36,424 nucleotides of DNA from an uncultured Thermomicrobiales bacterium. GTDB taxonomy: Bacteria > Chloroflexota > Chloroflexia > Thermomicrobiales > Thermomicrobiaceae. The notes under the pieces were generated by a model that worked only from the letters and a program-made list of their open reading frames with translations, ran no database searches and was not told where the DNA came from. The position numbers and the translations under genes are program-made. The stretch is taken from positions 1 through 36,424 of the forward strand of contig CALAGB010000229.1 in NCBI GenBank assembly GCA_937891245.1. The letters run 5' to 3'. This document shows positions 23,989 to 36,424 of this stretch, piece after piece; position 1 is the first letter of the stretch, and each line of letters begins with the position of its first letter.

Positions 23989-24720
23989 TCAATAGCCGGT
24001 GAGATCGGCCAGCAATTGGTCGATGTCGTAGCGCCCGGGTGGCTGCCGCAGGAGGAAACGGGCTGCCAGCAGCGCGCCCACCGCATACGAGCGGCGCCCG
24101 AACGCTTGATGGGTGAGCGTCAGCTCTTCGTCACCAGCCGCAAAGCGTACGGTGTGGCGGCCCGGTTGGCCGCCCAGGCGCAGCGAATGGAGATCGACGG
24201 CCGGTGCGGCGCCACGAGCCTCCGAGATTGTCTCTGCCAGGAGCAAGGCGGTTCCTGAGGGTGCATCGCGTTTGGCGGTGTGATGAGTCTCGATGATCGC
24301 CACGTCGTAGGCCGCCAGCGTCGTCGCCAGGCGGCGCAGCGCCTGCCGCAGCGCCGCGATCCCCAGACTGAAGTTTGCCGCGACGAAGAGCGGGATACGC
24401 AGGGCGTGCGCGTCGAGCCCGGCCGATTGATTCGCGTCGAAGCCGGTGGTGCCGCTAACGAAGCAACAGCCGTGCGCGACGCAGGCAGCCGCATGCCGCA
24501 GCGCACTCTCCGGCGTGCTGAAGTCGATGATAACGTCACAAACCGCGGCCAGTTCGTCCGGCTGGTCCGTCAGAAGATCCGGCCACCAGGCGTCCGCGAC
24601 ATAGGTACTGCCGGGGCGAACCGTGCCGCCGGCCAGCTGCAACTCCGGATCGCCGTCCACCAGTCCGGCCACGGTTCGCCCCATGCGACCGGCAATACCG
24701 GCGACGCCGACACGCATCAT
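23989..24720 (-). CDS. dapB: 4-hydroxy-tetrahydrodipicolinate reductase
   Basis: It has the N-terminal Rossmann motif MRVGVAGIAGRMGR and the DapB signature IETHHTAKRDAPSGTAL. An ATGA overlap couples it to dapA. Confidence 0.9.
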   Translation of the reverse strand: MMRVGVAGIAGRMGRTVAGLVDGDPELQLAGGTVRPGSTYVADAWWPDLLTDQPDELAAVCDVIIDFSTPESALRHAAACVAHGCCFVSGTTGFDANQSAGLDAHALRIPLFVAANFSLGIAALRQALRRLATTLAAYDVAIIETHHTAKRDAPSGTALLLAETISEARGAAPAVDLHSLRLGGQPGRHTVRFAAGDEELTLTHQAFGRRSYAVGALLAARFLLRQPPGRYDIDQLLADLTGY

Positions 24721-29772: not shown

Positions 29773-30054
29773 ATGATGAGCGAAGGGATGTTGAACGTGG
29801 CGGAGCGAACAAGGATCAACGCGCGCATGATCGTCGCCTATCAGAATGGCGGGCACCGGCTGCTACGTAACGGCTGCCTCGTAATCGAGGGGAACGAGAT
29901 CGTCCATGTCGGGCGTGATTTCGCCGGCCAGGCCGATCATGTGGTCGATGCCAGGGATCGCGTGATCACGCCCGGCTTCATCAACACGCATTCGCATCTG
30001 GCCGGTTCGCCTCTCGATAAATCGTATGGGATAGAGTCGCATCAAGTGGGATGA
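29773..30054 (+). pseudogene. 5' fragment of a metal-dependent amidohydrolase gene, interrupted by the integrative element
   Basis: Only about 85 aa of amidohydrolase-like sequence are present, ending just after the HxH metal motif (VITPGFINTHSHLAGSPLD). Unrelated residues and a stop then follow. The family is normally 400-450 aa. Confidence 0.75.
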
Positions 30055-31534
30055 TCGTCTTGAGTTCGTAGCGCGGGGTGTGGGCCGCGTTGTAGAGCGT
30101 CACTTCTGCTTGGAGCACCGCCAGGATATCGCGCTTTTCAGCCCAGTCGAGACGCTTCGCTCGACGTGCAACGGTCACACACCATGCCCGGACGTCGCCG
30201 ATTTGTCGCCGTGCGCGTTCCCAGTCATGGCGCTGGCACATGATCCGTTCGCGTTCAGCGCGAAGCTCCGCAAGCCGGGAGGCGTATTCTTCCAACTGCC
30301 GGACAAGCGGCGTGAGCGCGTCGTCATTCGTGACCATCGGGATGGCGGTCGTCACGTTACGCTGCTTGCGCTCAACCTCCCGCATTGTGCGGTCAATCGC
30401 TGCGAGGTTCGCGGTCGTCGGATCGTCTTGCATCCGTCGCTCTAGCTCGTCCTCAATAACGGTGGGGTCGGCCAGGAGCGCCATAATACGACCCCAGACG
30501 GCGGCGTCGAGTTCGTCGGCGAAGATCCATGCACCAGGGCACGCGCGCGGCATTCCCCGAGAATGATCGTTATGTCCACGGCAGCGATAGGACGGCTTCC
30601 CGTGACTCTTCGCCGTCTGAACAACGCGGCCACAATAGCCGCAACGAATGAAGCCGCTGCGCAAGAGCGCGTCTTCGGGCTTCAGCGTGTTTCGGGCGCT
30701 GTACTGCTTGTTGTGCTTGAGCCGGTCCTGTATCGTGCTGTGTTCATCCTCAGTGATAATGGCTGGGATAACGTCCTTCGCTAGGGCGAATTCGCCGCAC
30801 CAGGCAGCGCCGCACCCGGTGTAGTCCTGCGTTGTCAGGATGCGGTGAATCGTCGAGTGCGACCAATAATCCAGACCGCTAGGAGACGGGATTCCATCGG
30901 CGTTGAGCCCGAGCCGTATTCGATTGATCGACGTTCCGGCGAGGCATTCATCGACGATCCGGCGCACCACTTGGGCTTCGTCGTCATTGACGGCGTAACT
31001 GCCGCGGTCTTCGTCCTTGAAGCGATAACCGTAGAGCGGCTTCGGTCTGGATAAGAGCTTACCTTCACCCGCTCGCGCGCGTCGACCGCGTATGACGCGC
31101 TCCCTTAGATCTTTCCATTCTCGCTTCGCGCTATAGCCACGCAAGAAGAACATGAGCACGTCGTCATCGTCGGAGAGGTCAAGATCGTCGGTCACGATAT
31201 GGAACTTGACGCCGTACTGCCGGGCCTCAGCCAATCCGAGCATGTGGAAGAGCGGGTCGCGCGCGTAGCGATCCACCGAGTAGAAGACGACCGCTTCGAT
31301 TTCTCCGGTACGGATGGCGTTCCGGAGCGCGGTCATCTGCGGACGTTCCCAGAAATCAACGCCGGTATGTACCTCACGATAGATTTGTGTCTCTGGCACC
31401 ACGTAGCCGAGCCGCTCAGCATGAGCGATGCACGCGGCTAACTGCGTATCGAGCGAGTAGTTATCCGCCTGTTGCTTCGATGAGACGCGGGGATAGACGG
31501 CGGCGCGGGGTTGCTTCTGTTCCATGGTACTCAT
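29981..31534 (-). CDS. Large serine recombinase (integrase)
   Basis: The N-terminal resolvase domain has the catalytic Ser context AAVYPRVSSKQQADNYSLDTQ...VDRYARD. A recombinase domain, a zinc ribbon (CGYCGRVV...YRCRGH...ACPG) and a coiled-coil region follow. Length is 517 aa. Confidence 0.9.
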   Translation of the reverse strand: MSTMEQKQPRAAVYPRVSSKQQADNYSLDTQLAACIAHAERLGYVVPETQIYREVHTGVDFWERPQMTALRNAIRTGEIEAVVFYSVDRYARDPLFHMLGLAEARQYGVKFHIVTDDLDLSDDDDVLMFFLRGYSAKREWKDLRERVIRGRRARAGEGKLLSRPKPLYGYRFKDEDRGSYAVNDDEAQVVRRIVDECLAGTSINRIRLGLNADGIPSPSGLDYWSHSTIHRILTTQDYTGCGAAWCGEFALAKDVIPAIITEDEHSTIQDRLKHNKQYSARNTLKPEDALLRSGFIRCGYCGRVVQTAKSHGKPSYRCRGHNDHSRGMPRACPGAWIFADELDAAVWGRIMALLADPTVIEDELERRMQDDPTTANLAAIDRTMREVERKQRNVTTAIPMVTNDDALTPLVRQLEEYASRLAELRAERERIMCQRHDWERARRQIGDVRAWCVTVARRAKRLDWAEKRDILAVLQAEVTLYNAAHTPRYELKTIIPLDATLSHTIYREANRPDANAC

Positions 31535-32115
31535 GCGATGGCCTTGCTCGTGTCTGTGACGGCGAGCGAAAGAACTGGATGTGCAGCAGTCTTCTCATCC
31601 AGCCATGCTTGCATGCCGGCACGAATGATCTTCCGGGCATCGGTAGAGCGAATCATCCGCTGTTCAACCAGCGCGTGAGCAAGCGCCTCGACGCCAGCCC
31701 AGTGGTAGGGCGGCATGAGCAGTTCCTCGGCCTTGAAACGCATCCAGTTTGAAAACGCCTTCATGCCGTCCGAGTGGCCGTCGACAATGAACCAAGCGAG
31801 TTCCGAGATAGCGTGTGTATCACCACGGGCACCGATCCAATTGAAGCGGCCACTGAATCGCTTTTCCGCAACGGGGCCAGCCCAAAGAACAATGACATGC
31901 CGCTCAAGGTGACTCTGACTTCGGCTATCAAGGTGCGAATCGATGTGGACAGCGCTGGGCCACGGCGTGCCTTGGACATGACCGGCAGACATTTCTTCAA
32001 GGTTCGGGACGATCGAAACATACTCAAAGCGCGCGCCAAGGCGATAACTCGCGAACGCATGCCCCGCCTCATGAATGGCAACACGCAGGAGTCTTTGCCG
32101 TTCCCGTGCATTCAT
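31531..32115 (-). CDS. Stand-alone FtsH-like (M41-type) zinc metallopeptidase domain protein
   Basis: RVAIHEAGHAFASY (HEXXH as in FtsH ayHEaGHA), LWAGPVAEKRF (compare GGRaAEe) and GARGDTHAISELA (compare tGA.nDl..AT) are all present. There are no AAA+ or TM regions. AAGGAG lies upstream, and an ATGA overlap couples it to the integrase start. Confidence 0.75.
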   Translation of the reverse strand: MNARERQRLLRVAIHEAGHAFASYRLGARFEYVSIVPNLEEMSAGHVQGTPWPSAVHIDSHLDSRSQSHLERHVIVLWAGPVAEKRFSGRFNWIGARGDTHAISELAWFIVDGHSDGMKAFSNWMRFKAEELLMPPYHWAGVEALAHALVEQRMIRSTDARKIIRAGMQAWLDEKTAAHPVLSLAVTDTSKAIA

Positions 32116-32182
32116 AGGTACCTACTCCTTGCTACAATGGGCATGCCTCAGCACTGAGCCAACAGCGCGAGGCGTTACCTAG

Positions 32183-32222
32183 ACTCGCGGCGTAGCGGCT
32201 AACCCCTGTCTACGCCGCGAGT
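32183..32222. other. Perfect 13-bp GC-rich hairpin straddling the stop codon of the HTH gene
   Basis: The hairpin is ACTCGCGGCGTAG-14 nt-CTACGCCGCGAGT. The right arm encodes the last codons of the 32210-32413 gene. A T-run follows on the plus strand only. Confidence 0.5.
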
Positions 32223-32413
32223 TTTCCCGACTCATCCTCGAATCGCTCATCCAAGAATGCCCGGAAGTCCTGCTCACGAATCCGGTAGCCTGTTCGGCCA
32301 CCGAAGTTGTGGCCTGCGAGCTTATGCTCGCGAACCCAGCGACGTACCGTATTGACGTGAACCTTCAGCATGTCGGCAATCTCTTCGACCGTGTACCAGC
32401 GTGTTTCGATCAT
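32210..32413 (-). CDS. Excisionase/MerR-like HTH_17 DNA-binding protein (Xis/RDF or small repressor)
   Basis: YTVEEIADMLKVHVNTVRRWVREHKLAGHNFGGRTGYRIREQDFRAFL matches the excisionase-family HTH pattern. I prefer the ATG at 32413, which has AAGGTGG 8 nt upstream. Confidence 0.75.
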   Translation of the reverse strand: MIETRWYTVEEIADMLKVHVNTVRRWVREHKLAGHNFGGRTGYRIREQDFRAFLDERFEDESGKLAA

Positions 32414-32425
32414 CCGTATCACCAC

Positions 32426-32553
32426 CTTCCTTAGCTAACTATAGCACAACAAGACTGCTCATAGTTAGCGTTAGTTATTGACTCCGATGGTACGCTATGT
32501 TACGCTTTGTTCAGGTAACGTCTCGTTTGTTGGCTCAATGAAGGGAGTTCCCG
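32426..32553. promoter_or_regulatory. Divergent control region of the element (candidate operators and promoters)
   Basis: The region is lower in GC. It has an inverted repeat GCTAACTAT-18 nt-ATAGTTAGC (32434-32469) and a tandem decamer TACGCTATGT TACGCTTTGT (32491-32510). TTGACT (32478-32483), a 17-nt spacer and TACGCT form a candidate rightward promoter. Confidence 0.4.
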
Positions 32554-32943
32554 ATGCTCTATCAGCCGGATTCACTCAAGTGGAAGGATGCGGGCAAGCG
32601 CGCCGAAGCGGCGGGGTTGTCTGCTCGCCTGTTGTCATTTCAGGGAGGCGAACACCTCTGCTGCGAGTCATGGCGCGTGGCGCGACCGGACACCGGCACG
32701 CTGCGGAATGTCTACATCCTCTGGACGGCCGAAGGGATCACGTCGGTCGTCTGCGAGTGCCGGACGCGCGAGCAGAACGAGCACGACTGCGCCTGTTGCC
32801 ACGCGGCCGCGGCCGTCGAGGCGTCCTTCGATCTGGCGATTCAGGATGCCTGGCAGGATGACGACGGCGGGCTCGTGACGGTCGTCACACCATCGAACGG
32901 ACCGGGCTACGCAGTGCCGACGCAGCGGATTGAGTCACTCTAA
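32554..32943 (+). CDS. Hypothetical protein with SWIM-like CxC...CxH zinc-finger motif
   Basis: GAAGGGAG lies upstream of the ATG. VCECRTREQNEHDCACCH fits C-x-C-x11-C-x-H. I recognised nothing else in this protein. Confidence 0.5.
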   Translation: MLYQPDSLKWKDAGKRAEAAGLSARLLSFQGGEHLCCESWRVARPDTGTLRNVYILWTAEGITSVVCECRTREQNEHDCACCHAAAAVEASFDLAIQDAWQDDDGGLVTVVTPSNGPGYAVPTQRIESL

Positions 32944-33422
32944 TGGGAAGGATGAGCGACGTGGATATTCAGCAGCACAACGAACAGCCGATGTCATGGC
33001 GTGACAAGCGCAAGGCGATTGCTGAGAGTATGCGATCGGTCGTCGAGCGATTCGACCCGTTCATCGTAGCGGAATTTCTCTGGCAGACGGGCGCATATAT
33101 GGTGCTCTGGAAGCACTACGACCCGGACGCGCCCGCCAACGAGGTCGACAACGCCAGTTATTGTCAGATTGGCTGTAACCTGAATCTCGCGCCGGCGCTC
33201 GCATTCTGGACACGGGAGGAGGAGGAAGCGCTGTGCGCCCTCTGTGCGGAACGCATAACGGCGCGCTTCGGTCCCTACCTGCACGAGCACATCGCACCGC
33301 CGCATTTCACGCTGCTGCGTAACCCCACCGATCCTGAGCAAGTCGCGGCACTCGGTAACGCGCTCGAAACATGGGCAAACGAGCGTGCGCGTTCGGCAAG
33401 GAAGGGGGCGGACGTCGCATGA
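32943..33422 (+). CDS. Hypothetical protein
   Basis: A TAATG overlap couples it to the upstream gene. Coding bias is good and no recognisable motif is present. Confidence 0.6.
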   Translation: MGRMSDVDIQQHNEQPMSWRDKRKAIAESMRSVVERFDPFIVAEFLWQTGAYMVLWKHYDPDAPANEVDNASYCQIGCNLNLAPALAFWTREEEEALCALCAERITARFGPYLHEHIAPPHFTLLRNPTDPEQVAALGNALETWANERARSARKGADVA

Positions 33423-34036
33423 AGGCTGAACAAATCGCTCGCTATCTCAGTAGGCCATCAATTCAACATAGTATGAAGCGGCTCGCTTATCACGAGGCTG
33501 GGCATGCAGTCGGGGAGTGGTTGACCGGGTTTCTGCCCGAACGCATGGAACTTGAAATAGGAGCGGATGGCGATTGGGGGCATACCACTGCCGGGTGGCC
33601 CCAATGGCTACGATTCCCAGACGGCGATACTCGGTGGTGGCAAAGCCAAGTCTTTAGTGTGCTCGCCGGGCCATCGGCCGAAGCATATTTCGGGGGGCTT
33701 GTCCGGCCGCGCCTGAGTGCAACCGACAAAGAGGCCGTAAATCGCGCGGTAGCGCACCTGTACGCGACGCAGTCCGGTCAACGCGCCTATCTGCGAGCGA
33801 CGCGCGTCGAGGTCGATAATCTCTGGCATGCCGGGAACAATTGGCAAGCTGTCGGGCTATTAGCCAACGAACTCTATGATCGTCTGGTTGATAGCGAAGG
33901 AGAGGGATACGCTCGGCTGTTCACTGATGAGATACGCGACATACTCATCAGCACGCTCGGCATGAACGCCGGACTCGAGGAGACCATGTGCGAGGAGCGA
34001 GTGTTTCTTGACGCGATACCTCCGCGACCGGAATAG
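33419..34036 (+). CDS. Second stand-alone FtsH-like (M41-type) zinc metallopeptidase domain protein
   Basis: RLAYHEAGHAVGEW, VLAGPSAEAYFGG and SATDKEAVNRAV parallel the motifs of the 31531-32115 product. I prefer the ATG at 33419, which forms an ATGA overlap with the upstream stop. Confidence 0.75.
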   Translation: MKAEQIARYLSRPSIQHSMKRLAYHEAGHAVGEWLTGFLPERMELEIGADGDWGHTTAGWPQWLRFPDGDTRWWQSQVFSVLAGPSAEAYFGGLVRPRLSATDKEAVNRAVAHLYATQSGQRAYLRATRVEVDNLWHAGNNWQAVGLLANELYDRLVDSEGEGYARLFTDEIRDILISTLGMNAGLEETMCEERVFLDAIPPRPE

Positions 34037-34050
34037 CCGCTCACTCCTTC

Positions 34051-34085
34051 GGCCCGCTCAGGCTTCGGCTCGGGCGGGCCTTTTC
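34051..34085 (+). terminator. Rho-independent terminator of the rightward three-gene operon
   Basis: The hairpin is GGCCCGC-16 nt-GCGGGCC followed by ttttc, 15 nt after the stop at 34036. Confidence 0.55.
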
Positions 34086-34126
34086 ATGCCCCGCGTCCCC
34101 CGCCACAGTGCCGCTACATGCGCTAC

Positions 34127-34152
34127 ACCTTGTGGAATTATTTCCACAAGGT
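34127..34152. other. Perfect 11-bp hairpin/palindrome
   Basis: The sequence is ACCTTGTGGAA-ttat-TTCCACAAGGT. Confidence 0.5.
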
Positions 34153-34218
34153 TGGAAGCACGCCCCCCATGCGCGTATGGGTGCTATAACCCGTGACAAT
34201 GTAACGGAATATGAAGAG

Positions 34219-34340
34219 CCTGACACCCCCCGCGCGCGCGGGAAGCGCTCAACTGCGGACATGTCCGCAGTTGAAAGATCCTGACACCCCCGCGCGCGGG
34301 AGCGGGCCAATACTGCGACATTTTGCGACATGTTCGGACA
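34219..34340. repeat. Cluster of direct repeats, a 24-nt perfect palindrome and iterated GCGACAT-type motifs in a non-coding block
   Basis: DR1 is cctgacaccccccgcgcgcgcggga (34219-34243) and DR2 is cctgacacccccgcgcgcgggag (34280-34302). They flank the palindrome CAACTGCGGACATGTCCGCAGTTG (34250-34273). The motifs ctGCGACATttt, tGCGACATgt and tCGGACAag follow at 34313-34340. Confidence 0.55.
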
Positions 34341-34346
34341 AGGGGA

Positions 34347-34378
34347 AGGCGCCGCCGAAAGGAGCAAGAGCGGCGCCT
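34347..34378 (-). terminator. Hairpin downstream of the tape-measure-like gene (weak terminator candidate)
   Basis: AGGCGCCGC-14 nt-GCGGCGCCT forms a perfect 9-bp stem 76 nt after the stop at 34454. The trailing tract on the minus strand is T-poor. Confidence 0.35.
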
Positions 34379-34453
34379 ATCTGTGGAGAGTACGTAGAGG
34401 CAGTCGAGGAACGCTGAGGGGCGCGAATGGGGGTTGTTAGCGCATCAGTTTCG

Positions 34454-36424
34454 TCATGAGGGCATCGCTCCGAACGGGCTAATCGTCGTGCTGTATTGCT
34501 GCTGTCGGTCCATATCCACCTGGGCCGAGATCACCTGCCCGCCGATATGGACGTTGATCTGCGGGCTGTTGGTTGGCGTCATCCCAACCGCGTTGGAGTA
34601 ATTGGCCGGCGGGTGATAGCCCGCTCCCATGCCGACCACAACCATCTGTTGCCCATTGACGGTGACGATGTGCGCGGTGTTGTTATCGACGTGGTAGTTC
34701 GGATCGAGCGCCGGCGCCTCTCCGTAAGTCGTGCCCGCCGGCGCATAGGGCAGCGGCTCTCCGTTGGCGCCAATTACGTCGCTCAGGCCGGAACTGGCCC
34801 CGCTACCGACGCTGGCCCCGCCACCGCCCGAGCCGCCCGAACCGCCTGAGCCGTTGTGGTTATCGTTGGGGTCGACGTTGACATGGCCACCGGGCACCTT
34901 GTAGCCGAGTCCGTCCTCGAAATCGCCGTACTTGATCTTGACTTCATCGATCTTGTCGCCGAGTGCATCGAGGAGTTGCTCAATAATCCCGATGTTCTTC
35001 TCGATACCGCTCGGATCGGTCCCTTGCAGGAAGGCTGTCGCGAGGTCGACCGTCAGCCCTTGCTCGATCTGTTGCAACTGAGGGATAACGGCGGCGGGCA
35101 GAAGTGCCGCGGCCTGTGCGACCTGCAACGAACCGGTCTCGAGCGACTGAACGATCACGTTTGTCAGCGATGCGCCAGCGTCGTCCATCTGGCCCTCGAT
35201 GGCCCTGATTTGAGCGACGGTCGCGTCATTGACGACCGCGACCGCGTTATCAACCAGTCCGGCCGCTTGCGCCTGGATATAAATCCCTTGCTCAATCTGA
35301 AGCTGTTGGGTCGCGGCTTCGATCTGTTGATTAATGCCGTCCAGAATGGCCTGCGAGGCGCCGGACGCAATCGCGACCGAACGCTCGGTCGTAAGGTCCG
35401 CGATCGTCTGTTGCAGATCAGGAATCGCGGTCCCCTTCAGGATCTGATCGAACTGACGGTAGGCGTCCTGTTCTGCCTGGCCGAACGCATCGGCAAAGCG
35501 TTGTGCGGCATCACCGCTCGTGATTTGGGCGATCGAGCTATTGATGGCATCCGCGACCGTCGTCCCGTTGAACTCTGCCCAGCGCTGAATCAAGGACGTG
35601 ATGTCGTCAAACTGCCCCTGTAATTTCGCGATCTGGTCCGGGTCCGCGCCGGAGAGTTTCGCAAGGTCGAGTTGCTTGGCGATGTCGTCCTGTGTCGCCA
35701 GCAAATCCGGTAGGAGGTTCGCGGTAAGCCGCGGCACCATCGTGTCACTCGACAGCTCCGCCACCATGCCGTCAACCATCGCTTGAGCGATCTGCTTGCC
35801 GTCGCTCGTGGCCGCGTCGATCACGGCCTGTGTCGGGGCCAGTCCATCACCAAGGCTGCGGAGAATCTGCTGCGTCTGGTCGGCGGTGAAAATCTCGGTG
35901 CCTTTGGGGACCAGCGCCAGGCCCGGCGCACCACCGTTGGCAATCCCGACCGTGCCGCCGCTGGCGAAGGCGCCGGCGTAGGGGAACACCATCAACTCGG
36001 GGCCAAGCTCGTTGACCATCGCGACATGGGTCGTGTGGGCCGATGAGAGACCGGACGCATGATTAACCGACGGGTTCCCGGCAATCTGCACCGGCAGGTA
36101 GATCGGTGCGCTGGCCACTGCTCGAATGCGTTCAATCTCGGCAATGGCGGCGGCATCCGCGATCTGGATCTCGATCGGCGGCGGCGACTGCAAGTTATTG
36201 AGTTTGGTCGTGAGGTCTTCGATGGCCGGGACCAAATCATCATGGACGACATCAGCGACTGATTGCATCGCACCAGCCATCGGGTCGCCGCCGAGCCGTG
36301 CCGCTTCGGCTTGCGCATCCTGCACGCCTTTGACCGCCTGTTCATACTGCGGTCCGGAGTTGATACCGTCTTGAACAAGTTGATTGAGCTTGTCCTGAGC
36401 CATCATCAACTCGCCCTTGGCGCC
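34454..36424 (-). CDS. Phage tail tape-measure-like protein (N-terminus outside window)
   Basis: The frame is open to the window edge (GAKGEL precedes the listed start). Long Gln/Ala-rich helical repeats surround a block VNELGPELMVFP...GTEIFTADQT, which is typical of tape-measure proteins. A Gly/Ser-rich linker and a C-terminal globular part follow. Confidence 0.55.
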   Translation of the reverse strand, partial: GAKGELMMAQDKLNQLVQDGINSGPQYEQAVKGVQDAQAEAARLGGDPMAGAMQSVADVVHDDLVPAIEDLTTKLNNLQSPPPIEIQIADAAAIAEIERIRAVASAPIYLPVQIAGNPSVNHASGLSSAHTTHVAMVNELGPELMVFPYAGAFASGGTVGIANGGAPGLALVPKGTEIFTADQTQQILRSLGDGLAPTQAVIDAATSDGKQIAQAMVDGMVAELSSDTMVPRLTANLLPDLLATQDDIAKQLDLAKLSGADPDQIAKLQGQFDDITSLIQRWAEFNGTTVADAINSSIAQITSGDAAQRFADAFGQAEQDAYRQFDQILKGTAIPDLQQTIADLTTERSVAIASGASQAILDGINQQIEAATQQLQIEQGIYIQAQAAGLVDNAVAVVNDATVAQIRAIEGQMDDAGASLTNVIVQSLETGSLQVAQAAALLPAAVIPQLQQIEQGLTVDLATAFLQGTDPSGIEKNIGIIEQLLDALGDKIDEVKIKYGDFEDGLGYKVPGGHVNVDPNDNHNGSGGSGGSGGGGASVGSGASSGLSDVIGANGEPLPYAPAGTTYGEAPALDPNYHVDNNTAHIVTVNGQQMVVVGMGAGYHPPANYSNAVGMTPTNSPQINVHIGGQVISAQVDMDRQQQYSTTISPFGAMPS

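Follow-up and report, generated by a model that had tools for sequence, protein, structure and literature searches.

The last 6.4 kb of a 36,424-nt stretch of DNA from an uncultured Thermomicrobiales bacterium (contig CALAGB010000229.1; the whole stretch is called the window below) hold a mobile element that encodes two peptidases, pepA and pepB, related to the protease domain of FtsH. They belong to a family of ATPase-less M41 peptidases in prophage lysogeny modules; here, uniquely, it is represented by two divergent copies, which apparently have a control element in common. pepA (31531-32115, minus strand) encodes a stand-alone M41 peptidase of 194 amino acids (aa), and pepB (33419-34036, plus strand) a stand-alone M41-type peptidase of 205 aa, the divergent member of the pair. 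Judged by sequence and structure model, each is a soluble protein with a single domain, homologous to the M41 protease domain of FtsH; both lack an ATPase, keep their ligands intact and are apparently catalytically active. They may act on regulators of the switch between lysogeny and excision.

PepA and PepB are 25% identical in a single BLASTP comparison (E=4e-5), and the alignment spans 191 columns, so that their similarity is full-length and reaches beyond the HEXXH motif. A hidden Markov model (HMM) of the family, built from 111 homologues with both window proteins left out, matches PepA with 183.5 bits (E=2.6e-58, residues 1-181) and PepB with 76.5 bits (E=1.4e-25, residues 13-155). Across the family, HEAGH, the AGPxAE Gly and Ala, and a single Asp stand in invariant or near-invariant columns. 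All of these are present in PepA (H15-E16-x-x-H19, G80, A83 and D99) and in PepB (H25-E26-x-x-H29, G84, A87 and D103), and the AGPxAE glutamate is also present in both (E84 and E88, respectively). The conserved columns align with TAYHEAGHA, LAGRAAEE and GAENDxxxAT of FtsH, the Asp being the third ligand, and against the PDB the family profile retrieves FtsH chains with E=2e-20, in a match that also covers the C-terminal helical part. An earlier note, made from the letters of the DNA alone, had described the two open reading frames (ORFs) as ATPase-less FtsH-like peptidases, a description borne out by the HMM, the structure search and the alignment. It had allowed that the likeness might be confined to HEXXH or that one copy might have lost its ligands; the similarity extends over the 191 columns and all ligands are kept. 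Its further suggestion that one copy might be a decoy or inhibitor is unsupported, PepB retaining every invariant catalytic column.

The AlphaFold2 models of PepA (predicted local distance difference test, pLDDT, 92.4; predicted template modelling score, pTM, 0.87) and PepB (pLDDT 84.5, pTM 0.81) point to the same fold. In Foldseek searches against the PDB, the top 49 listed matches for PepA and 50 of the 50 listed matches for PepB are chains of FtsH, AFG3L2, YME1 or FtsHi. The best is 3kds_F for both (PepA, E=7e-7 and query TM-score, TMq, 0.66; PepB, E=3.5e-4 and TMq 0.52). Pfam gives weak M41/M50 matches only, with PF01434 scoring 26.0 bits for PepA (E=9.8e-6) and 14.6 bits for PepB (E=0.031) against a gathering threshold of 29.9. 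Several relatives pass this threshold, for example P0023 at 53.3 bits; since the window pair falls below it and some relatives lie above it, the family is a divergent sub-branch of M41. Neither protein has a Pfam AAA domain that would represent the AAA+ module, and TIGR01241 scores 19.9 bits for PepA, against a cutoff of 600, with no match for PepB. There is no room for a transmembrane anchor, with HEXXH starting at residue 15 in PepA and 25 in PepB and the models beginning at the active-site helix region. An alternative gene call starts PepB at M19 and gives 187 aa. With FtsH, YME1 and AFG3L2 the two peptidases thus share the fold, TAYHEAGHA, AG(x)AAE, the third-ligand Asp and the C-terminal helical sub-domain; they differ in lacking the transmembrane helices and AAA+ module and in being encoded by a mobile element.

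The family is large. With a first profile, built from four sequences, 334 representative proteins match at E<=1e-30, and the number rises to 3,855 at E<=1e-10 and 11,288 at E<=1e-3. Of the 11,288 matches, the top 150 are all 162-280 aa long, so that the family is one of short single-domain proteins; 12 short members were found on IMG/VR viral contigs. Among the longer members no extra domain was found except in P0070 (locus L054, 387-1088), in which an N-terminal HTH_3/HTH_31 domain is fused to the M41 domain, the only such member found. PepA is a typical member, for which many relatives reach 100-124 bits; PepB is an outlier, with 43 bits for its best relative. Among 258 family proteins PepB ranks last with PepA as query, and PepA ranks 151st with PepB as query. 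By these sequence comparisons the two are old lineages of one family that diverged anciently, and the earlier view of them as duplicated has to be given up in the sense of a local duplication. The pairing itself is unusual, as had been proposed: in an HMM scan of 53 fetched loci, two family members were found only in the window element and its identical copy, and about 30 other elements, including ones examined later, are single-copy. An ORF downstream of relative P0009 in locus L005 was considered as another paralogue and rejected as Arg-rich and spurious.

Existing annotation says little about the family. PHROGs, NCBIfam and PADLOC gave nothing useful for PepA, PepB or the products of the two genes ahead of pepB, ORF129 and ORF159. 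No curated phage or defence annotation of the family was found, and tblastn searches of cultured phage and plasmid collections gave no match for PepA or PepB. With relative P0009 the same collections gave only apparent full-length FtsH genes, one match being annotated as 'ATP-dependent metalloprotease'. JGI labels on relatives read 'ATP-dependent Zn protease' or 'Peptidase family M41'. A0A6J5RJ76, a 214-aa 'Peptidase M41 domain-containing protein' of an uncultured Caudovirales phage, has a similarly short single-domain architecture (Foldseek against BFVD, E=4.9e-6, target TM-score, TMt, 0.55). Such stand-alone M41 entries in databases differ from the window pair in carrying domain labels only, with no functional study found and no examined locus having two copies, and a literature search turned up no paper about such stand-alone peptidases in mobile elements.

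The two peptidase genes lie in divergent operons on either side of a 128-bp intergenic region. Leftward, on the minus strand, a small HTH_17 gene (32210-32425) is followed by pepA and by int (29981-31534), a large serine recombinase gene whose ATG overlaps the pepA stop codon. Rightward, on the plus strand, ORF129 (32554-32943), ORF159 (32943-33422) and pepB follow one another with overlaps of 1 and 4 nt. The gene order agrees with the earlier account of a divergent control region flanked by the two peptidase genes, with pepA second-last and pepB last in its own operon. The pair adjoins an integrase gene and lies at one edge of the integrated element. The HTH_17 protein (excisionase/MerR-like DNA-binding, 71 aa from a GTG) matches Pfam HTH_17 with 1e-16 and PHROG 66, 'excisionase and transcriptional regulator', with 3e-11; alternative gene calls start it at ATG 32413 and give 67 aa. 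Its C-terminus (32210-32225) reads ESGKLAA, with an ssrA-like LAA that may be there by chance. A C-terminal LAA of the ssrA type is recognised by ClpXP and FtsH. The recombinase (517 aa) matches Pfam Resolvase (6.6e-22), Recombinase (1.6e-14) and Zn_ribbon_recom (4.3e-11).

A bipartite motif, AGGTAACG-N7/8-TGTTGGCTCA, of 26-29 nt has exactly two copies in the 36-kb window, which none of 100 shuffles reaches. Copy 1 (AGGTAACGCCTCGCGCTGTTGGCTCAGTG; 32152-32180, minus strand) lies in the intercistronic leader between the HTH_17 gene and pepA; its bipartite match, at 32155-32180, ends 39 nt before the pepA ATG. Copy 2 (AGGTAACGTCTCGTTTGTTGGCTCAATG; 32513-32540, plus strand) lies directly 5' of the ORF129 ribosome-binding site; its bipartite match, at 32513-32537, ends 16 nt before the ORF129 ATG. 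The same motif thus stands just upstream of each in equal orientation relative to its own downstream gene, and both peptidase operons therefore start with one cis element. This argues for shared rather than opposite control, and the earlier suggestion that the two proteases are oppositely regulated finds no support. The motif might serve both operons as a common operator or leader element, or its copies might form the arms of an invertible switch. In public collections it gave 74 metagenome and 21 IMG/VR single matches, about the chance expectation by estimate, and none in a related element.

The leader and the divergent region hold further candidate control sites. A perfect 13-bp stem with a 14-nt loop (32183-32222, minus strand) straddles the HTH_17 stop codon immediately 5' of motif copy 1 on the pepA transcript, and the pepA leader RNA has a predicted fold of -53.8 kcal/mol (z=-3.35). 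This hairpin may be an attenuator or a processing site between the HTH gene and pepA-int. Within the 128-bp region, a perfect 9-bp inverted repeat, GCTAACTAT-N18-ATAGTTAGC (32434-32469), is operator-like. Its left arm overlaps TGCTATAGT, a candidate extended -10 promoter on the minus strand, and its right arm is just upstream of a candidate plus-strand promoter, TTGACT-17-TACGCT, both read from sequence. A tandem 10-nt repeat, ATGGTACGCT/ATGTTACGCT, at 32487-32506 is also operator-like, and between them the inverted and tandem repeats overlap candidate -10 and -35 elements. Inverted repeats comparable to these showed no consistent pattern in the control regions of relatives.

Apart from copies in Planctomycete chromosomes, most of the family is found in uncultured prophages and integrative elements, in the lysogeny part near the integrase. 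The peptidase gene adjoins a serine recombinase gene in L021 and L022, and in L004 a serine recombinase lies 6 kb from it. In L006 it is followed directly by a tyrosine integrase gene, with an HTH_3 gene close by; in L058 it follows an integrase fragment; and the contig of P0003 carries a serine recombinase, a tyrosine integrase and HicAB. In L020 an HTH_17-like ORF overlaps the start of the peptidase gene. L057 (5396-6537) has an operon of RHH_1 (51 aa), ORF149 and the peptidase gene in which stop and start codons overlap; it lies at a prophage end, with a tyrosine integrase gene divergent from it and a tape-measure gene adjoining. This operon has the shape of ORF129-ORF159-pepB, and its partner ORFs have no sequence similarity to ORF129 and ORF159. 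In L155 an operon of ORF105, the peptidase gene and ORF232 is divergent from a serine recombinase and converges on head genes, and in L154 the peptidase gene is the last one ahead of convergent tail genes. Both positions in the window therefore have single-copy precedents, the pepA-like one between a small HTH gene and int, and the pepB-like one closing a short operon that faces late genes.

The Planctomycete copies have other surroundings. In metagenome-assembled genomes (MAGs) L008, L011, L013 and L014, M41-like genes lie directly 3' of genes for an S46 peptidase, a sulfatase, a MauG-like peroxidase or a DUF1570 protein, overlapping them or within about 25 bp. These copies may be a non-mobile sub-branch with a different role. 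A split FtsH with its ATPase encoded upstream was considered for them and rejected, the upstream genes being S46 peptidase, sulfatase, MauG and DUF1570 genes and not AAA+.

It is possible, and favoured here at somewhat less than even confidence, that PepA and PepB are regulatory proteases that cut at specific sites, independently of ATP, and belong to the lysogeny/excision module, a proposal drawn from genomic context. Each would cleave an element-encoded or host DNA-binding regulator, or an excision-directionality factor, and the cleavage would help to set the lysogeny/excision switch. Given the 26-nt cis motif common to the upstream flanks of both operons, the two proteases would probably be induced together and would act on different substrates rather than oppose each other. 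They would be functional analogues of ImmA acting on ImmR in ICEBs1, and element-borne counterparts of host FtsH acting on lambda CII, CIII and Xis.

Host FtsH controls the stability of lambda CII, CIII and Xis. The likeness lies in an M41 protease that decides the stability of lysogeny and excision regulators; the host enzyme differs in being full-length, ATP-dependent and membrane-bound, the element copies being ATPase-less. For Xis, degradation by both Lon and FtsH is given in PMC9956884 with reference to Leffers and Gottesman 1998. In ICEBs1, immR, immA and int are co-expressed and ImmA cuts ImmR (PMC9956884, PMC10233336). The order HTH_17-pepA-int, divergent from the remaining genes of the element, resembles immR-immA-int of ICEBs1 (PMC9956884). 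Like ImmA, IrrE and CapP (M78, COG2856, PF06114; partners ImmR, DdrO and CapH), PepA and PepB are HEXXH zinc peptidases without an ATPase, and the rare HTH_3-M41 fusion P0070 recalls the XRE-M78 fusions of that group. They differ in peptidase family and fold, and no partner is conserved across the stand-alone M41 family.

Several observations weigh against a regulatory protease of this kind. PF06114 has no match at E<=1, and no M78 structure is among the listed Foldseek matches. Unlike the partner of ImmA, the neighbour of pepA encodes an HTH_17 protein of 67-71 aa, not an XRE repressor, and lacks a cleavable C-terminal domain. The HTH fusion occurs in one of about 120 members. An all-against-all phmmer comparison of 30 upstream neighbours, made in search of a conserved partner, matched only one near-identical pair of loci, and a Pfam census of 104 neighbours showed no dominant family. 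The copies in Planctomycete MAGs adjoin ordinary chromosomal genes (S46 peptidase, sulfatase, MauG homologue), and the relative in L056 has a Schlafen-AlbA_2 gene and a type I restriction-modification system as neighbours, a setting like that of a defence island. An isolated FtsH protease domain is not known to degrade folded proteins efficiently.

The setting in L056 suggests another role, here considered rather unlikely, in which the peptidases are accessory (moron-type) prophage genes for defence or counter-defence and cut proteins of superinfecting phages, or host defence and stress proteins, rather than the element's own regulators. Besides the SLFN_AlbA_2 and type I system of L056, the variable contexts with no conserved partner and the HicAB and Fic genes in neighbouring positions are consistent with it, as are positions at prophage ends or beyond the integrase (L057). 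The integrase-proximal region is the usual place of defence genes expressed by a lysogen. Against this, no PADLOC model matches PepA or PepB (with PADLOC-DB 2.0 models at E<=1 there was no match for ORF129 or ORF159 either), there is no evident sensor or partner gene, and the translational coupling of pepA to int links pepA to recombination rather than to defence.

PepA and PepB might instead modulate host FtsH or form a hetero-oligomeric ring, co-assembling with each other or with the host FtsH ring and so altering the turnover of substrates that decide between lysis and lysogeny, an arrangement that is improbable. FtsH-family paralogues do form hetero-hexamers, such as FtsH types A and B. 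The window pair keeps the whole protease domain including the C-terminal helical part (domain 2 of the profile covers FtsH residues 419-480, and the structural matches have TMq values of 0.5-0.68 with some 190-230 columns aligned), and the two divergent paralogues apparently share a control motif. However, the single copies in about 30 other elements imply that hetero-oligomers are not the general mode, and the family-invariant catalytic residues would be needless in a pure scaffold or poison subunit.

A toxin-antitoxin-like or addiction module, in which a peptidase toxin is restrained by the small protein encoded upstream (HTH_17 here, RHH in L057), is quite improbable. Small DNA-binding genes do stand upstream at several loci, L057 has the three-gene layout RHH-x-peptidase, and pairs like ImmR/ImmA are often mis-scored as toxin-antitoxin systems (PMC10233336). 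However, the upstream genes are non-homologous between loci, many loci have no small DNA-binding gene there, and pepB is preceded by two ORFs that are not DNA-binding. A test of this idea on the TnSmu1 ImmRA pair led to its rejection (PMC10233336).

Seen on the DNA, the motif copies are inverted repeats around a cassette of about 390 bp (32152-32540) that holds the HTH gene and both divergent promoters, each arm abutting the ribosome-binding region of one peptidase operon. Because the arms bracket a promoter cassette as in invertible promoter switches, a flip that swaps the promoters of pepA-int and ORF129-ORF159-pepB could be imagined, as a DNA-inversion lysogeny/excision switch wired to two FtsH-type proteases that might also form a hetero-oligomeric ATP-independent ring; this is highly improbable, and the cassette has the same orientation in all three assemblies that cover it.

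ORF129 and ORF159 have no family match. ORF129, which has no Pfam match at E<=0.01 and forms a singleton cluster, contains CECRTREQNEHDCACCH (CxC-x9-CxCCH), a Cys/His cluster reminiscent of a SWIM-type zinc finger. The proteins of the element are in fact all singletons when clustered at 90% identity. A 651-aa ORF (34454-36409, minus strand) without a family match is convergent on pepB and runs almost to the end of the contig. It is probably a late or tail gene by analogy, since the peptidase operon converges on tail or head genes in L154 and L155. Searches of IMG/VR with the integrase or the 651-aa protein found no relatives of the element, and Rfam and tRNA scans of 29.5-36.4 kb gave no match.

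A terminator-like hairpin (34067-34080, plus strand, with a T-run to 34090) lies 31 nt 3' of the pepB stop codon; it comes from a consensus scan whose overall count did not exceed what shuffling predicts. Between pepB and the 651-aa ORF lies a repeat-rich spacer (34037-34453, 417 bp). It holds an 11-bp hairpin at 34127-34152 and a 26-bp palindrome at 34249-34274, both perfect, and two direct repeats of about 45 nt (34214-34257 and 34275-34317) that have GC-rich palindromic cores.

At the left end, an ORF at 29773-30054 (plus strand, 93 aa) is a 5' fragment of an amidohydrolase-like host gene according to the ORF list and its translation, and from its ITPGFINTHSHL motif it reads as the N-terminus of an amidohydrolase. 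The ORF is truncated, with its stop codon lying within the 3' end of the recombinase gene. It is the probable left attachment junction of the element, at about 30.0 kb, and a host coding sequence seems to have been the target of integration.

Three other contigs with the element proved identical to it across the element in an attempted selection analysis. One independent assembly, L001, is 99.92% identical to the window and has an identical element. Ten of the 12 mismatches between the two fall within 150 bp (24418-24565) of a host ORF (23989-24720, minus strand) that corresponds to the Pfam DapB_N/DapB_C gene of L001. Both assemblies stop at the same base, 36424, just upstream of the 651-aa ORF, and this shared break points to a repeat or strain-variable sequence that disrupts assembly.

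Many prophages and integrative and conjugative elements sense when to exit through repressor proteolysis, the known means being RecA-stimulated self-cleavage, peptidases of the ImmA/IrrE type (M78), and host Lon, ClpXP or FtsH. If the stand-alone M41 family, with its thousands of clusters, proves to be a second, unrelated class of element-encoded switch proteases, many genes of uncultured temperate phages that are now called "hypothetical" would gain a name. It would also mean that the FtsH protease domain is able to work without its unfoldase. The two-copy element is a natural test case, since two proteases and four small candidate substrates lie within 2.5 kb together with a single shared control motif.

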